Source of the DNA: Paracoccaceae bacterium
GTDB lineage: Bacteria > Pseudomonadota > Alphaproteobacteria > Rhodobacterales > Rhodobacteraceae
Direction: 5' to 3'
Length of the DNA: 44,120 nucleotides
NCBI GenBank assembly: GCA_015487335.1
Contig: WFPZ01000017.1
Span: 1 to 44,120, forward strand
This document shows positions 658 to 28,637 of the stretch, piece by piece. Below the pieces are notes generated by a model. That model did not search any database, was not told the DNA's origin, and saw only the letters and a list, made by a program, of their open reading frames with translations. The stretch's first letter is position 1, and every line of letters begins with the position of its first letter. The position numbers were made by a program, and so were the translations under genes.

Positions 658-742
658 GTTAAGGGGCAGGCCTCGGCCTGCCCCAATGGTGTGGATCTTT
701 CACCTTATCGCGGGAAAGACCACGCCGCTTCTTCTGCTAGGA
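658..742 (-). ncRNA. Candidate tracrRNA (anti-repeat, small nexus-like hairpin, terminator hairpin)
   Basis: Minus-strand RNA 5'-UCCUAGCAGAAGAAGCGGCGUGGUC pairs over 25 bp with CRISPR repeat nt 11-35 (minus orientation). The only two differences are G.U wobbles. UUUCCCGCGAU then pairs with repeat nt 1-7 across a UUU/UUU loop. A sigma-70-like promoter lies upstream and a GC hairpin at 663-684 downstream. The ends are estimates. Confidence 0.75.
663..684 (-). terminator. Terminator hairpin at the 3' end of the tracrRNA candidate
   Basis: ggggcaggcctcggcctgcccc forms a 9-10 bp GC stem. On the minus strand it is followed by TTAACTT, a weak U tract. Confidence 0.55.
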
Positions 743-795: not shown

Positions 796-3700
796 ATGTA
801 TCGCTTTGCATTTGATCTGGGGTCCGGCTCACTCGGCTGGGCCGTATTCAAACTCAACGAAAGACAAAAACCCACACAGCTTGTTGACATGGGCGTGCGG
901 ATATTCCCGACCGGTCGCGATCCCAAGTCGAAAGAGTCCAATGCCGCTGGTCGCCGACAACCTCGCCAGCAGCGGCGTCAGATCGATCGGCGCAAGAAAC
1001 GGCGGCAGCGGCTTGAAGAACAGCTGGTGTCGGCGGGGCTGATGCCTGCCAGGGACAGGCCGGAGGAGCGCGCCGCCTTTTTTGCCATCGATCCTTATCA
1101 AGCGCGCCAGCGTGTGGCTCAGGAGAAATGCTCCTTGTATGAGTTGGGACGCGCCATCTGGCACATCTCGAAGCATCGGGGATTCAGGAGCAATCGAAAA
1201 ACCGATCGTGCCAACGAGGAAGAAAGTGGCAAGATCGCCCCTGCTGCCGCTCAGCTCCGCGAACGATTGGCTCAGGAAGGCGCTCCGACCTATGGGGTGT
1301 GGCTTGCAAGACGCCATATGGCGGGCAAGCCGGTGCGCATACACCTGGGTAACGACAAGGGGTATGATTTCTACCCCACGCGCCAGATGCTGGAGGACGA
1401 GTTCGATCATATCTGGCGCGTGCAGGCCCGCCACCATCCGAACCTGACCGACGAAAAGCGCGACGCCATCCGCGACACGCTCTTCTTCCAGCGCCCGCTG
1501 AAGCCGGTCCAACCCGGGCGCTGCACCTTCTTTCCCGAGGATTTCCGCCTGCCAAAGTGGCATCCCCTGGCACAGGAGTTCGTCATTCTCCAGCAGCTCA
1601 ACTCGCTGCGCATCCTTGGCGAAAGCGGCGAACGGGCGCTCGAGCCAACCGCGCGCAACCTGGTCGCCCGACACCTCATGGCCGGCAACAAGCTGACATG
1701 GAAGGGCTTGCGCAGGCTTCTGAAACTGCCCATGGATACCGAGATCAATCTTGAACGCGGCGGACTCAAGGCGCTTGCCTGCAACCAGACTGTCGCCCGA
1801 ATGCTGGGCACGAAGCGCAAGCCGGGACCGCTGGCCGAAAACTGGGACAGCTGGGACGAGGCCCAAAGGCTGCGCCTGCTGGAAATCCTTGATGCCGCTG
1901 AAACCCCTGAAGAGGCCGTTCACCGCCTGATGAATGAATGCGGGCTTGAGCGCGAAACCGCCGCGGCAGTCGAAAAAATCCCCCTGCCCGAGGGCCATAT
2001 CATGCTGGGCGAGCGGGCGGCACGGGCGATCGTGCAGGTGATGCGCGAAGAGGTGATCGTCTACAGCGACGCGGTGCGCATGGCCGGCGAACGCGGCCTG
2101 TTCGGCGAAGGCGCCGTGATCCACCATTCCGATCTGCGCCCCCAGGATGACCCGGGTCTTGACCGCCTGCCGCGCTACAACGAATTGCCAGCGCTTCAAC
2201 GGATGATCGGCACCGGCACGGGCAACCCGGAGGACCCGCCCGACATCCGTTTCGGACGGATCGCAAATCCGACCGTGCACATCGCGCTCGGCCAGTTCCG
2301 GAGGGTGATGAATGCGCTGATCGAGCGCTACGGCAAGCCCGCGCAGGTGGTCATCGAGACCACCCGAGACATGGCGAAATCGGCGCGCGAACTGAACGAG
2401 ATCGAGCGCACGATCAAGGCCAACACGAAGCGTAACGACACATGGCGCGCCGAATTGGAAGCGGCGGGCATTGTCGCCCCGGGCCAACGCATGGGCGATC
2501 GGCTCTTGCGCATGCGCCTGTGGGAAGAACTGGGCCAGACCCCGGCGGACCGCCTGTGCCCTTATTCGGGGCGCCCGATCTCGCTCCATCAGCTTCACTC
2601 CGACGACGTGGAGATCGACCATATCCTGCCCTTCGAGGATACCTTCGACGACACACCCGCCAACAAGACGGTCTGCTTCCGCTCCGCCAACCGCATCAAG
2701 GGCAAGCGCGCGCCCGGCGACGCATGGAGCGACGATGAACTCGTCGCCATCATCGACCGGGTGAAGGCCGCGCCCGGCATGAGGCACAAGCTCTGGCGTT
2801 TCCTGCCCGATGCGCTCGAAAAATGGCAGGAGCAGAAGAGCTTCGAGGATCGGCAACTGCATGCCACCGGCTATCTGGCCCGCGTGGTGCGCGCCTATGC
2901 CGAGGCGCTTTTCCCCAGGGACGGCACGTCGAACATCTGGATGCCCGTGGGGCGCATGACCGCCATGATGCGCCGCCGCTGGGGCATATACCTGCCCGAT
3001 CACAACGCCAAGACCCGCGACGACCACCGCCATCACGCGCTGGATGCGGCGGTGATCGGGGTGATCGACCGGCGCATGATCCAGCAGCTTCAGACCTACG
3101 CCCGCCAGATCGGCGCAGAGGAGCTCGACCGGGTGCTGCCCGCCCCACCCGAGCCGTTCGAGGGCTACCGCGACCAGGTGATGGAACGGGTGCGGCGCGT
3201 GCAGGCCAGCCACCGCCCGGACCATTCCGCCAGCGGCCGCCTGCACGAAGACACCGCCTATGGGCTGATCCGCGATGTGCCCGAGAACCAGGCCGCGCGC
3301 ACCATCGGCAATCTGGTTGTGCGCAAGCCGGTCATCGCGCTGACCGCCAAGGAGATCGGACAGGTGCGCGACGAGAAGATCCGCGAAGAGTTGCTGCGCG
3401 CCACCGAAGGGCTGCGCGGCGACAGGAAGAAGCTGGCCGAGGCGCTCGCGACGTGGAGCGAAAAGAGCGGCCACCGGCGGCTGAGGATCATCAAGCCCGC
3501 CGAGAACGCGCGCCCTGTGCGCGATGCACAAGGCCGCCCCTACAAATGGCTGGTCCCGGATGGGATCGCATGGATGGACATCCTCGAAGCCCCTGACGGC
3601 AGATGGTTCCACCACGCCACCGATATCTGGGCGGCACAGTCCGGAAATGCGCGCGACTGGCGCACGGAATACCCTGATGCCCGTTTCATCATGCGGCTCT

Positions 3701-3981
3701 ACAAGAACGACACGATCCAGCTGTTCGATCTGGGCGATGACGGCAAGCCGATCGAGGGCAACAACAGGATCAAGCGCGTCGTCCGGCTTGAGCCGAGTGC
3801 AAATCGGATGCGTCTCGTCGGGGTCAATGAGGCCGGCGAATACGACAAGCGCCACAATGACCCGGACGATCCCTTCCGCTGGGACTTCGCAACCATCTCG
3901 ATACTGAAGGCCCGTCGTGCCCGCCGCGTTCGGATCGACGAAACGGGCCGGGTGCGGACCATCCCGCACGGTAGAAACTGA
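796..3981 (+). CDS. cas9: Cas9, type II-C (1061 aa from ATG 796; alternative ATG at 766)
   Basis: RuvC-I MYRFAFDLGSGSLGWAV. Arg-rich bridge helix RRQPRQQRRQIDRRKKRRQRLEEQL. HNH motif DVEIDHILPFEDTFDDTPANKTVCFRSANRIKGKRAP. RuvC-III DDHRHHALDAAVIG. Followed by cas1-cas2 and a CRISPR array, with no csn2 or cas4. Confidence 0.95.
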   Translation: MYRFAFDLGSGSLGWAVFKLNERQKPTQLVDMGVRIFPTGRDPKSKESNAAGRRQPRQQRRQIDRRKKRRQRLEEQLVSAGLMPARDRPEERAAFFAIDPYQARQRVAQEKCSLYELGRAIWHISKHRGFRSNRKTDRANEEESGKIAPAAAQLRERLAQEGAPTYGVWLARRHMAGKPVRIHLGNDKGYDFYPTRQMLEDEFDHIWRVQARHHPNLTDEKRDAIRDTLFFQRPLKPVQPGRCTFFPEDFRLPKWHPLAQEFVILQQLNSLRILGESGERALEPTARNLVARHLMAGNKLTWKGLRRLLKLPMDTEINLERGGLKALACNQTVARMLGTKRKPGPLAENWDSWDEAQRLRLLEILDAAETPEEAVHRLMNECGLERETAAAVEKIPLPEGHIMLGERAARAIVQVMREEVIVYSDAVRMAGERGLFGEGAVIHHSDLRPQDDPGLDRLPRYNELPALQRMIGTGTGNPEDPPDIRFGRIANPTVHIALGQFRRVMNALIERYGKPAQVVIETTRDMAKSARELNEIERTIKANTKRNDTWRAELEAAGIVAPGQRMGDRLLRMRLWEELGQTPADRLCPYSGRPISLHQLHSDDVEIDHILPFEDTFDDTPANKTVCFRSANRIKGKRAPGDAWSDDELVAIIDRVKAAPGMRHKLWRFLPDALEKWQEQKSFEDRQLHATGYLARVVRAYAEALFPRDGTSNIWMPVGRMTAMMRRRWGIYLPDHNAKTRDDHRHHALDAAVIGVIDRRMIQQLQTYARQIGAEELDRVLPAPPEPFEGYRDQVMERVRRVQASHRPDHSASGRLHEDTAYGLIRDVPENQAARTIGNLVVRKPVIALTAKEIGQVRDEKIREELLRATEGLRGDRKKLAEALATWSEKSGHRRLRIIKPAENARPVRDAQGRPYKWLVPDGIAWMDILEAPDGRWFHHATDIWAAQSGNARDWRTEYPDARFIMRLYKNDTIQLFDLGDDGKPIEGNNRIKRVVRLEPSANRMRLVGVNEAGEYDKRHNDPDDPFRWDFATISILKARRARRVRIDETGRVRTIPHGRN

Positions 3982-4048: not shown

Positions 4049-4963
4049 ATGGTTGGACAGATACTGGAACTCACGCGCATGGGGCTGTCCGTGCACAAGC
4101 GCCGCGGCTTTCTGGCCGTCGATGCCGAGGGGCGGGAGGCGGGGCGCCTTGGCCTTGACGACATCGAGGCGGTCCTGGCCGCAAGCCCCGGCGTGATGTG
4201 GTCAAACACCGCGCTTGCCGAACTGGCGGCGCGCGCGGTCCCGGTCATGATCCTGGGCCACAACTTCACCCCGGTGGCCGTTGTGTTGCCGCTTGCAGGC
4301 CACCACGCACAAGGCGAACGTTTCCGCGCCCAGGCCGCCGCGTCGCGCCCGCTGCGCAAACAGGCCTGGGCTGCCATGGTGCGCCACAAGATCGCCGCCC
4401 AGGCCGAGGCGCTCGAGCGGGTCGGGGCTCCCTCCGAGCGGCTGCGCCGGCTGACGATGGCCGTGCGCTCGGGCGACCCTGACAACCGCGAGGCCCAGGC
4501 CGCCCAGGCCTACTGGCCGCTTCTCATGGGCAGGGACTTTCGCCGCGACCGCGAGGCCGAAGGCGCCAACGCATTGCTCAACTACGGTTATGCCGTGCTG
4601 CGCGCCGCCACCGCGCGCGCCATCGTCGCCGCCGGGCTGCACCCTTCCCTCTCCCTGCACCACCGCTCGGGCGGCGACGCGCTGGCGCTGGCCGACGATC
4701 TGATGGAGCCCTTCCGGCCAACCATCGACCTTGCCGTTTGCAGGCTTGTGCGAGGCGGCATCACCAGCGTCGGGGAGGCTCGCGAAGAACTGATCGCCTG
4801 CCTCAATGCCGATTTTCCGACGAAGAATGGTGCGACGCCGCTATCGCACGTGCTTCTCTACCTCGCCCGCAGCCTGGCCACTTCCTTTCTCGACCGCAAG
4901 TTGCGGCTCGATTTCCCGTCCCGCCCGCTGCCGGACGAAGTCGGGGGCACGGCCAATGGCTGA
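4049..4963 (+). CDS. cas1: Cas1 integrase (304 aa)
   Basis: Position between cas9 and cas2. Motifs NALLNYGYAVLRA and GLHPSLSLHHRSGGDALALADDLMEPFRP. SD GAGGAGG lies upstream of ATG 4049. Confidence 0.93.
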   Translation: MVGQILELTRMGLSVHKRRGFLAVDAEGREAGRLGLDDIEAVLAASPGVMWSNTALAELAARAVPVMILGHNFTPVAVVLPLAGHHAQGERFRAQAAASRPLRKQAWAAMVRHKIAAQAEALERVGAPSERLRRLTMAVRSGDPDNREAQAAQAYWPLLMGRDFRRDREAEGANALLNYGYAVLRAATARAIVAAGLHPSLSLHHRSGGDALALADDLMEPFRPTIDLAVCRLVRGGITSVGEAREELIACLNADFPTKNGATPLSHVLLYLARSLATSFLDRKLRLDFPSRPLPDEVGGTANG

Positions 4964-5303
4964 ACGTTACACGCAACTGTCGGGGTATCGGATCATGTGG
5001 GTCTGGGTCCTTTTCGATCTGCCCGTTGGCACGAAGGCCGAGCGCAAGCGGGCCACGCGGTTTCGCAACGACCTTCTCGATCTTGGGTTCGAGATGGTCC
5101 AGTTTTCGGTATACTTGCGCCATGCTTGGAGCCGGGAGAAAGCCGAATCATATGCGCGCAAGGTTGGCGAATGCGTGCCCCCCTCTGGCCATGTTCAGGT
5201 GCTGTTCTTCACCGACAAGCAATATGCGCAGAGCAAAGTCTATCGCGGACGAGCGAAACCGCAATCACCGGACGAAAAACCGCGCCAACTTGCGCTTTTC
5301 TAA
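4956..5303 (+). CDS. cas2: Cas2 (115 aa)
   Basis: MAERYTQLSGYRIMWVWVLFDLPVGTKAERKRATRFRNDLLDLGFEMVQFSVY is a typical type II Cas2 N-terminus. Its ATG overlaps the cas1 stop (ATGGCTGA). Confidence 0.9.
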   Translation: MAERYTQLSGYRIMWVWVLFDLPVGTKAERKRATRFRNDLLDLGFEMVQFSVYLRHAWSREKAESYARKVGECVPPSGHVQVLFFTDKQYAQSKVYRGRAKPQSPDEKPRQLALF

Positions 5304-5345
5304 ACATTTCCTGGCCGGAATCTCGATGCTGGATCCCAAGAAAAT

Positions 5346-5372
5346 CCCCGCGCAACAATGGGTTGCGCGGGG
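5346..5372. terminator. 11-bp perfect hairpin between cas2 and the array
   Basis: ccccgcgcaac-aatgg-gttgcgcgggg. The plus strand continues TTAATCC. The minus strand continues ATTTTCTT, the better U tract, which fits termination of a minus-strand array transcript and also the end of the cas operon. Confidence 0.7.
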
Positions 5373-5375
5373 TTA

Positions 5376-5939
5376 ATCCTAGCAGAAGAAGCAGCGTGGC
5401 CAAACCCGGACTACCTCCGGTGCTTCGTCGACGAGGGTGAGATCCTAGCAGAAGAAGCAGCGTGGCCAAACCCGGACGACCAGTCCATGCTCAAGCTCCC
5501 GGCAGTCATCCTAGCAGAAGAAGCAGCGTGGCCAAACCCGGACATAATCGGCCACGAACGCAGGAACCTCGGCATCCTAGCAGAAGAAGCAGCGTGGCCA
5601 AACCCGGACATAATCGCGCGGCGTCCACTGCGCCCGTCCATCCTAGCAGAAGAAGCAGCGTGGCCAAACCCGGACTATCGGGAGCAGCAGTTGCGCGCGA
5701 ACCGTATCCTAGCAGAAGAAGCAGCGTGGCCAAACCCGGACATGGGCCATGGTCATACAGGGAACGCAGGGATCCTAGCAGAAGAAGCAGCGTGGCCAAA
5801 CCCGGACGTCGTTCAGGCTGTCCCTGGTCGAGACGTCATCCTAGCAGAAGAAGCAGCGTGGCCAAACCCGGACCTCTTGAGGGCGAACTTGACCTTGCCC
5901 TCGATCCTAGCAGAAGAAGCAGCGTGGCCAAACCCGGAC
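5376..5939 (-). CRISPR. CRISPR array: 9 identical 36-nt repeats, 8 spacers of 30 nt (transcription strand inferred as minus)
   Basis: The repeat (plus strand) ATCCTAGCAGAAGAAGCAGCGTGGCCAAACCCGGAC occurs at 5376, 5442, 5508, 5574, 5640, 5706, 5772, 5838 and 5904, an exact 66-nt period. Orientation is inferred from the tracrRNA wobble pattern and the flanking terminator. Confidence 0.97.
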
Positions 5940-6135
5940 TGGGCTCAGAAGCCTAATGCGCGCGCCCTCAAACTCAAAAATGCAGGATAGGCTTCACCTA
6001 ACCCCGTCTCGCTCTAACTGACCCGCAGCAACAGCTGTGTCACCGACTGCTCGGAATCTGCCAGTCAGGTCAGCCTGCTCGCCTCCTGCTCCTCACAGAA
6101 AGTGAATCACTGCCGGTCAGAGATGGAAATCCCGC

Positions 6136-7218
6136 CTATCCGGCCTGTTCCCCGACCTGCGCACCCCACCTTTCCAGCACGTCCTCCGGCGTCAGCGCGC
6201 CCTCTTCGCCGCGCGCCCGGGGCGGCGTGCGCGACAGGCGCGGGGCGGGGTTCGGGCCGTGCGGGCCGAACACGTCTCGCGCCCGCATGTGCGGGGCGCG
6301 CCGGGCCTCGTCGATGGAGAGCACCGGGGTGACGCAGGCGTCGGTTCCCTCGAAGAGCGCGGCCCACTCGTCGCGGGTGCGGGTGGCGAAAACCTCGGCC
6401 AGACGGGCGCGCATGGCAGGCCAGTCGGCCACCGACATCTGCGCCGGCATGTCCACGATCCCCAGCCCCTCCAGCAGCGCGGCCCAGAACTTGCCCTCGA
6501 TCGCCCCCACCGCCACATGCCCGCCGCAGGCGCAGCGGTAGGTGGTGTAGAAGGGCGCCGCCCCGTCGAGCAGGTTGGCGCGGCGCCGGTCCGCCCACAG
6601 GCCCGCCGCGCGCAGCGAGTGGATCATCGCCGAAAGATGCGCCACGCCATCGACGATTGCCGCATCCACCACCTGCCCCCGCCCCGAGCGCGCCGCTTCC
6701 AGCAGCGCGCAAACCATCCCGAAGGCCAGGTAGATGCCACCGCCGCCGAAATCGCCCAGCAGGTTGAGCGGCACCGCCGGCTCTTCGCCGCCGATCGCGT
6801 GCAGCATGCCGGTCAGGGAAATGTAGTTGATGTCGTGCCCGGCCGTGTGCGCCAGCGGCCCCTGCTGGCCCCAGCCCGTCATGCGCCCGTAGACCAGCCG
6901 CGGATTGGCCTCCAGCATCTCGTCGGGGCCCAGGCCGAGGCGCTCCATCACCCCCGGGCGCATGCCCTCGATCAGCCCGTCGGCCCGGGAAATCAGGGCG
7001 CGCGCCGCCTCGCGGCCTGCGGGCGATTTCAGGTCCAGCTCCACGAAGCCCCGGCCCCGGTTGAGGATGTCCACCTCCTGAGGGATCAGCGGCCGCGCGC
7101 CGGGGCGCTCGATGCGCACCACCTCGGCGCCGAAATCGGCCAGGGTCATGGCGGCAAAGGGCGTGGGGCCGAGCCCGGCGATCTCGACGATCCTCACCCC
7201 CGTCAGCGGCCCGCTCAT
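6136..7218 (-). CDS. Family III CoA-transferase (CaiB/BaiF; alpha-methylacyl-CoA racemase-like), 360 aa
   Basis: N-terminus [40 protein letters not shown] and the internal [11 protein letters not shown] motif are typical of this family. Confidence 0.8.
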
Positions 7219-27451: not shown

Positions 27452-27528
27452 TGGTACCGCCTCCCCGGCTTGAACGGGGGACCTCTGGATCCACAATCCA
27501 GCGCTCTAACCAACTGAGCTAAGGCGGC
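27452..27528 (-). tRNA. tRNA-His(GTG), alphaproteobacterial type without G-1
   Basis: The minus strand folds as a cloverleaf. Acceptor GCCGCCU/AGGCGGU (G1.U72), D-arm GCUC-AGUUGGUUA-GAGC, anticodon arm CUGGA-UUGUGGA-UCCAG, T-arm CCCCG-UUCAAGC-CGGGG, then A73 and encoded CCA. The base 5' of G1 is T. Confidence 0.9.
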
Positions 27529-28419: not shown

Positions 28420-28589
28420 ATCTGGACGGTTGGCGGGTTCTGCCCTTCTCGTGAAGAGGTCCAATTCCGGTGGCCTTAAATAATTCCGAGGGAGCTGGCT
28501 CTGTCCGGATCGTGGTCCGGTTACCTGGCGCCCACCTGTAGTTGCAGGTCCTCGGGAATTCGCACACCTCCACGGCCGTGGCGGGCCCG
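28420..28589 (+). ncRNA. Candidate structured small RNA (~170 nt), unclassified
   Basis: P1 pairs 28472-28481 with 28540-50 (10 bp plus one bulge). It encloses hairpins CCGGA/UCCGG (28495-28510) and ACCUG/CAGGU (28524-28539). A single-stranded ACACCUCC follows, then terminator GUGGCGGGCCCGCCAC (28568-28583) plus UUUCUU. No plausible ORF is present. The ends are estimates. Confidence 0.4.
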
Positions 28590-28637
28590 CCACTTTCTTC
28601 CGGCAGAATGCGGGAAATGCCAGCGTGCCCGCCGGGC

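Follow-up and report, generated by a model that had tools for sequence, protein, structure and literature searches.

An alphaproteobacterial type II-C CRISPR array, predicted to run antisense to its cas genes, carries a promoter-like element in every repeat

The type II-C system of Neisseria meningitidis 8013, with short palindromic repeats that are clustered and regularly interspaced (CRISPR) and with Cas9, was reportedly described by Zhang et al. in Mol Cell in 2013. The repeats of strain 8013 end in TGCTACAAT (PMC12477760), and transcripts start at the sixth nucleotide (nt) of the spacer (PMC12477760, PMC5965381). In Campylobacter jejuni NCTC11168 the repeats have GGTAAAAT at their end and primary transcripts begin at spacer position 5, while ribonuclease III (RNase III) with the trans-activating CRISPR RNA (tracrRNA) makes the 3' end only (Dugar et al. 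2013, PMC3656092). The arrays of both species run opposite to the cas genes (PMC3737331), and promoters of CRISPR RNAs (crRNAs) embedded in the repeats were reported for both in 2013 (PMC3656092; review PMC5965381). The locus described here lies in a 44,120-nt stretch of DNA, called the window, from contig WFPZ01000017.1 of a Paracoccaceae bacterium (assembly GCA_015487335.1). The source is an uncultured marine alphaproteobacterium; the window has 68% G+C, and its DNA otherwise recurs only in hydrothermal-vent metagenome DNA runs (n=6). The locus is of type II-C CRISPR-Cas9 and ordinary of its kind. The best explanation of the whole is probably that of a II-C locus with a minus-strand array whose repeats end in promoters.

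The locus shares many features with the N. meningitidis system. Both have only cas9, cas1, and cas2, 36-nt repeats, 30-nt spacers, and an array opposite to the cas genes. The repeats end in TGCTAnnAT in both, starts are predicted here about 6 nt into the spacer, and new spacers are expected at the cas2-adjacent repeat. A preliminary description of this DNA had likened its repeat end to that of N. meningitidis, and the likeness is apt (TGCTACAAT there, TGCTAGGAT here). The two systems differ in that the Cas9 of this locus falls in an alphaproteobacterial branch; N. meningitidis is not among the best 80 loci kept from a Cas9 scan. The Neisseria promoter has been described as an extended -10 element without a -35 element. 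The -10 of the present locus (TAGGAT) is weaker, but there is a -35-like TTGGCC 16 nt upstream of it, and a strong intrinsic terminator is predicted 3 nt past the last repeat. C. jejuni likewise has an extended -10-like repeat end and an array opposite to cas. Its genome is AT-rich, however, its repeat sequence and protospacer-adjacent motif (PAM) differ, and in the window a T stands before the extended -10 G (TG), which is also the case in N. meningitidis. The type II-A systems of Streptococcus pyogenes and S. thermophilus have in common with this locus a tracrRNA, Cas9, an RNase III-type duplex, and mature crRNAs in which a spacer precedes part of a repeat. In contrast, II-A arrays are co-directional with cas and have a single leader promoter, new spacers enter the transcriptionally first repeat, and crRNA 5' ends are processed (PMC5965381, PMC12080349).

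Overall the differences from known II-C systems are of degree: a weaker -10, a recognizable -35 at 16 nt, and an abutting, conserved terminator. As far as a DNA sequence can tell, every feature that marks a II-C locus with repeat promoters was found. Promoters in repeats already belong to the published model of II-C arrays and are now regarded as general in this type, and current understanding is unchanged.

The array consists of nine identical repeats, each with a promoter-like element when read on the minus strand. The array, its repeats, and the terminator beyond it are as follows.

5376-5939, minus strand: CRISPR array, nine identical 36-nt repeats and eight 30-nt spacers, period 66
5376-5411, minus strand: repeat 1, adjoining cas2 and predicted to be transcribed last; -35-like 5403-5398, TG 5384-5383, -10-like 5381-5376
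5442-5477, minus strand: repeat 2; -35-like 5469-5464, -10-like 5447-5442; predicted start 5437-5434, in spacer 1
5508-5543, minus strand: repeat 3; -35-like 5535-5530, -10-like 5513-5508; predicted start 5503-5500
5574-5609, minus strand: repeat 4; -35-like 5601-5596, -10-like 5579-5574; predicted start 5569-5566
5640-5675, minus strand: repeat 5; -35-like 5667-5662, -10-like 5645-5640; predicted start 5635-5632
5706-5741, minus strand: repeat 6; -35-like 5733-5728, -10-like 5711-5706; predicted start 5701-5698
5772-5807, minus strand: repeat 7; -35-like 5799-5794, -10-like 5777-5772; predicted start 5767-5764
5838-5873, minus strand: repeat 8; -35-like 5865-5860, -10-like 5843-5838; predicted start 5833-5830
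5904-5939, minus strand: repeat 9, the distal 'extra' repeat, predicted to be transcribed first; -35-like 5931-5926, -10-like 5909-5904; predicted start 5899-5896
5372-5338, minus strand: predicted intrinsic terminator of array transcripts; hairpin 5372-5346 and tail AUUUUCUU 5345-5338

The 36-mer ATCCTAGCAGAAGAAGCAGCGTGGCCAAACCCGGAC occurs on the plus strand in exactly nine copies, with starts at 5376, 5442, ..., 5904. The reverse complement of all nine is GTCCGGGT-TTGGCC-ACGCTGCTTCTTC-TGC-TAGGAT. It contains a -35-like TTGGCC, a 16-nt gap ending in TGC, and a -10-like TAGGAT as the final six nt, so that each repeat ends in TGCTAGGAT, an extended -10-like box at the 3' end. Both the reading TTGGCC-N16(TGC)-TAGGAT and the identity of the nine repeats had been noted in the preliminary description, and an exact count and reverse complementation agree with it. 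For a repeat starting at plus-strand coordinate a, the -35-like box is at a+27 to a+22, the TG at a+8 to a+7, and the -10-like box at a+5 to a. The only role expected of repeat 9 is that of promoter for the oldest spacer. At the other end, the predicted start from repeat 1 (5371-5368, 5-8 nt on) falls within the terminator hairpin, and therefore no crRNA is expected from this repeat.

The element is rare in the rest of the window. The composite pattern TTG-N16-18-TGnTAnnnT was found at none of 86,940 positions outside the array and nine times within it, always on the minus strand. A sigma-70 weight matrix, a rough one of our own with frequencies after the Escherichia coli literature, gave a score as high at just five of 86,870 background positions; by this measure the repeat element ranks among the top 6e-5 of positions. 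The nine copies count as a single independent observation. The real case against chance is conservation among relatives.

The ends of related repeats are conserved in the way expected of a -10 element. The comparative set comes from a Cas9-alignment scan, of which the best 80 loci were kept, and includes 79 II-C loci at 27-84% identity. It replaced an earlier scan of genomes with a loose tracrRNA pattern, in which the matches listed were mostly due to chance. Read antisense to cas9, the repeats of the relatives start with GTT or GTC and end in (T/G)GCTAnnnT. TAnnnT closes 46 of the 51 distinct full-length related repeats, and the same pattern occurs elsewhere at 0.1-0.2% of positions on either strand. 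Among the 46, T-12, A-11, and T-7 are invariant, the middle three bases are free, and the extended -10 G at -14 is present in 41. In 24 of the 46 there is a TTG at 16-17 nt upstream of the -10, where shuffles give 3.2. The anti-repeat of the tracrRNA is a paralogue of the repeat and is equally constrained by pairing; among 48 pairs, just 12 of these copies retain TAnnnT and 16 the final T. Because this paralogue mostly lacks TAnnnT, pairing with the tracrRNA does not explain the conservation of the repeat end. In one relative (L009) TAGGAT has become TATGAT, which is nearer to consensus, and its tracrRNA shows no compensating change. This pattern of conservation is shown here, as are the anatomy and the orientation of the locus.

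Decay of the distal repeat spares the promoter end. In 19 arrays with decayed distal repeats, 81 mismatches fall at positions 1-15, nine at 16-27, and two at 28-36. Survival of the promoter end alone would follow if this repeat now served only for transcription of the oldest spacer; the same bias in distal-repeat decay, with the same explanation, is reported by Feussner et al. (PMC12080349). No leader is shared among the relatives, and their distal flanks are mutually unrelated. The preliminary description had proposed a promoter-like element in every repeat; the -10 conservation, the contrast with the anti-repeat paralogue, and the decay of distal repeats support it. On this evidence each repeat quite probably carries a functional promoter of the sigma-70 type.

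Several points weigh against promoters in the repeats. TAGGAT and TTGGCC each match consensus at four of six positions, with a gap of 16 nt instead of 17, and a plain sigma-70 consensus scan of the window, which needs 9/12 matches, does not call the repeat (8/12). The related repeats are phylogenetically non-independent. The terminal bases of the repeat are also the leader-repeat junction for Cas1-Cas2, and their conservation could be partly for integration. Similarly, the -35-like TTG lies in the part of the repeat that also contacts the tracrRNA and Cas9. Neither the array nor the locus was found in any of the RNA runs, so that promoter activity and start sites are inferred, and RNA-library contigs of relatives yielded no usable array. 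Finally, the gene upstream of the array is a possible source of read-through, because no recognizable Rho-independent terminator was found between it and the array.

6136-7218, minus strand: CoA-transferase family III gene (Pfam CoA_transf_3, E 1e-77), co-directional with the array; its end is 197 nt upstream of repeat 9

If the repeats do act as promoters, the array would be expressed as a set of short units. Transcription would proceed on the minus strand toward cas2, with RNA polymerase starting from the promoter of each repeat at about 5-8 nt into the downstream spacer. The short primary transcripts would already have the guide 5' end as their own 5' end and would carry about 22-25 nt of spacer. 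The repeat that follows would pair with the anti-repeat of the tracrRNA, Cas9 would bind the duplex, and RNase III would probably trim the 3' side. Read-through past the last repeat would halt at the hairpin and U tract (5372-5338) before antisense entry into cas2. Promoter activity, start sites, and 5' ends independent of RNase III are suggested here by analogy with N. meningitidis and C. jejuni.

An alternative is that the minus-strand array is transcribed as one long precursor, from an external promoter or by read-through from the CoA-transferase gene, and is cut by RNase III. The promoter likeness would then be incidental, and the repeat end would be conserved for spacer integration or for binding of Cas9 and the tracrRNA. 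This is unlikely, with observations on either side. There is a co-directional gene 197 nt upstream without a terminator, but the upstream flanks of the relatives are unrelated, which means that there is no conserved leader promoter. The anti-repeat pairs with nearly the whole repeat and makes a good RNase III substrate, but the anti-repeat copy has not kept TAnnnT. The hexamers match at only four of six positions each, yet a T, an A, three free bases, and a T, with a G upstream, is the pattern of a -10 element, and repeats are promoters in both II-C systems tested. The last base of the repeat is the II-C integration junction (PMC12080349, PMC12477760). Integration is an alternative cause for the last base or two; it leaves unexplained the distal repeat, which is never an integration site or a crRNA handle and keeps positions 28-36 while 1-15 decay. 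A long precursor from read-through may also coexist with internal promoters, although it leaves the pattern of conservation unexplained.

That the locus is inactive or decaying and its promoter-like element a product of chance is very improbable. Nine identical copies do amount to one observation and the element is below the 9/12 consensus threshold, but the cas genes are intact, the repeats are identical, and the element is conserved family-wide. Furthermore, there are perfect or near-perfect protospacers in the same vent metagenomes and on a viral contig.

Promoters in the repeats would add a high-G+C, uncultured alphaproteobacterial case to a mechanism that experiments have demonstrated in Neisseria and Campylobacter alone. 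The comparison of repeat with anti-repeat paralogue and the decay of distal repeats are sequence-only arguments for the generality of repeat promoters in this II-C branch. In practical terms, spacers, PAM, and guide length come out correctly only when annotation places the array on the strand opposite to cas, and a single repeat-spacer-repeat unit should express itself if this Cas9 is used in a heterologous host.

The orientation of the array can be deduced from its tracrRNA. The order of the locus is tracrRNA (minus strand), cas9-cas1-cas2 (plus strand), terminator, and array. The tracrRNA features are the following.

777-748, minus strand: predicted tracrRNA promoter, TTGAAA 777-772, 18 nt, TACAAT 753-748
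741-655, minus strand: predicted tracrRNA of about 85-90 nt, with anti-repeat, CGAUAAGG, small hairpin, and terminal hairpin
711-742, minus strand: anti-repeat, 32 nt, 84% complementary to every repeat
663-684, minus strand: tracrRNA terminal hairpin, GGGGCAGGCC-GA-GGCCUGCCCC, with a weak U tract UUAACUU that is clearer in relatives

The tracrRNA promoter is the best sigma-70-like site in the whole window by our matrix. A second TACAAT overlaps its -10 at 748-743, and relatives have TTGCAA-N17-TAnnnT at the corresponding position. The parts that follow the anti-repeat (CGAUAAGG and the hairpins) are present on the minus strand and not on the plus strand. The fold has a z-score of -3.9 and beats all 200 shuffles. 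In more than 15 relatives the unit hardly varies; it lies there on the other strand from cas9, with a promoter upstream and a hairpin and T run downstream. The duplex of repeat and anti-repeat has an energy of -61.8 kcal/mol with the repeat in minus sense and -50.6 in the other orientation. Two mismatches in its core become G:U only when the crRNA is minus-sense; otherwise they are C:A and A:C. Among 53 related pairs of repeat and anti-repeat, 48 transitions are wobble-compatible only in the antisense orientation and 13 only in the sense orientation.

The terminator points the same way. Its hairpin (5346-5372) begins 3 nt beyond the last repeat and has 11 pairs, nine of them G-C, followed by a minus-strand U tract ATTTTCTT in the terminator scan. 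A hairpin and U tract are present in all 12 close relatives, where the T run is invariant, and six of the 11 pairs of the consensus stem show compensatory changes on both sides. About half of 57 more distant loci have a similar structure past the last repeat in a cruder scan. A cas2-proximal hairpin with its U tract on the minus strand had been proposed in the preliminary description, and the scan and the relatives bear this out.

Three spacers have protospacers with a similar flank. Spacer 1 (5412-5441) matches a 1258-nt non-array contig of vent metagenome run X1 at 30/30 positions, and spacer 3 (5544-5573) matches a 6797-nt non-array contig of the same run with one mismatch. IMG/VR was scanned with the 3' 22 nt of seven spacers, and spacer 4 alone (5610-5639) matched, its protospacer agreeing at 29/30 positions with a viral contig (L211, 1369-1398). 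In crRNA sense the 3' flanks of protospacers 1, 3, and 4 are TGGAATGG, GCGAATGC, and CAGCATCT. NNG(A/C)AT is common to the three and lies on the 3' side in minus sense only, which suggests a PAM of about NNG(A/C)AT on the 3' side (n=3 sites). The PAM of Cas9 must be 3' of the protospacer.

Because the tracrRNA strand, the G:U asymmetry, the covarying terminator, and more weakly the 3' motif of the protospacers agree, the crRNAs almost certainly come from the minus strand and the array is antisense to cas9-cas1-cas2, as had been proposed for this DNA from the pairing with the tracrRNA. Co-transcription of the array with cas9-cas1-cas2 on the plus strand in II-A style, with a crRNA repeat of ATCCTAGC...GGAC, has next to no chance of being correct. 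In its favor, the array is directly downstream of cas2, and the hairpin at 5346-5372 lacks a plus-strand U tract and would not have to halt transcripts of cas. Against it, all relatives have the tail, promoter, and terminator of the tracrRNA on the minus strand, 12/12 relatives have the U tract of the array terminator there as well, the duplex would be 11 kcal/mol weaker with C:A and A:C instead of G:U, and the protospacer flanks share no motif on the required side.

Some further observations concern the tracrRNA and the spacers. At the tracrRNA locus there is a plus-strand copy of the repeat end (733-745) that reads TGCTAGGAA. Its final -10 T is replaced, as it is in most relatives, and thus promoter action toward cas9 is not expected. 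A conserved tracrRNA query matched 20 RNA runs, in every case as undirected contigs. Those from relatives with a near-identical tracrRNA cover 662-745 and do not carry direction; one begins at 738 and one stops 9 nt past the hairpin. Neither the tracrRNA nor the repeats are covered by an Rfam family. The seven nucleotides CGATTAT (crRNA sense) are common to spacers 3 and 4 at the PAM-adjacent end (5544-5550, 5610-5616); the two may target a single site in genes that are homologous between two related elements. The vent metagenome contigs contain many alternative spacers, yet they break or collapse at the repeats. One contig of run X1 joins 5375 to 5904 with a single repeat, which is probably an assembler collapse.

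The terminator hairpin also contains a position-fixed motif. AAC-N4-TG is found at 5364-5356 on the minus strand, inside the hairpin. In 23 of 57 II-C loci it begins exactly 12-13 nt past the cas2-proximal repeat; controls gave 27 of 342 when the motif was counted at any place in a 30-nt stretch. Many other loci have variants, AAG-N4-TGAT for example. Because it is located at the end where II-C spacers are integrated, the motif may be a signal for the leader or for integration, overlapping with the terminator.

A tentative and rather doubtful joint reading combines a hairpin of dual role, a repeat that is coded in three ways, and a promoter in the last repeat that fires into the hairpin without a guide. 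The hairpin may terminate crRNA transcripts and, via AAC-N4-TG, direct Cas1-Cas2 to the cas2-adjacent repeat. Within the repeat, the TTG of the -35 may lie in an unpaired internal loop of the crRNA:tracrRNA duplex, the -10 may lie in the part that RNase III removes, and the last base may be the integration junction.

The distal flank of the array was less informative. The preliminary description had named a further promoter on the leader side. Its observations and its interpretation of the repeats are otherwise confirmed or supported by the comparison, and this sequence is indeed present, but a promoter role is unsupported: about 19 background sites score as well and the flanks are not conserved.

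5977-5950, minus strand: leader-side candidate TTGAGT-N16-TAGGCT

A tenth, degenerate repeat beyond 5939 was rejected, with an alignment score of 25 against a shuffled mean of 24. Similarly, no significant hairpin that would sequester an extraneous crRNA's guide was found upstream of repeat 9 (z-scores -0.5 and -0.65). The distal repeat carries no mutations, and none of the three published ways of suppressing extraneous crRNAs is evident. Three relatives (L135, L137, and L006) have 9-17 consecutive G and then CGA(C/T)(T/C)TCA about 25-45 nt beyond the distal repeat, upstream in crRNA sense; nothing like it is found in the window.

The cas operon is complete for a type II-C system.

796-3981, plus strand: cas9 (Pfam HNH_4, RuvC_III, Cas9_a), of type II-C size, 1061-1071 amino acids
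4049-4963, plus strand: cas1 (Pfam Cas_Cas1, E 2.3e-26)
4956-5303, plus strand: cas2 (Pfam CRISPR_Cas2); its ATG at 4956 overlaps the 3' end of cas1

The longest open reading frame (ORF) of cas9 starts at 766; all homologues in the Cas9 alignment begin with MYRFAFDLG, which corresponds to the ATG at 796. Pfam and an ORF check found only cas9, cas1, and cas2 in the operon and no fourth cas gene (csn2, cas4). Cas9 is of the compact II-C kind and has HNH and split RuvC domains. Its nearest relatives, at 62-84% identity, are from Rhodobacteraceae and other Alphaproteobacteria, and the relatives at 27-84% identity have the cas9-cas1-cas2-array layout. The array follows cas2 in nearly all relatives with a detectable array, and here the gap between the cas2 stop and the first repeat is 72 nt. 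In metagenome run X3 a diverged strain (many single-nucleotide polymorphisms, depth 118) lacks 93 nt, 5246-5338, from the 3' end of cas2 to the hairpin.

The setting of the CRISPR locus resembles a genomic island, because a tRNA gene and an insertion sequence remnant adjoin it. The 3' part of the tRNA gene is at 1-45, truncated by the window edge (Rfam, 30 bits), and a short ORF with a fragment of a DDE transposase domain (DDE_Tnp_1_6) lies at 331-540, between this gene and the tracrRNA. Elsewhere in the window there are a second tRNA gene (27455-27528, minus strand, Rfam) and a 6S RNA gene (28434-28591, plus strand, Rfam, 52 bits).

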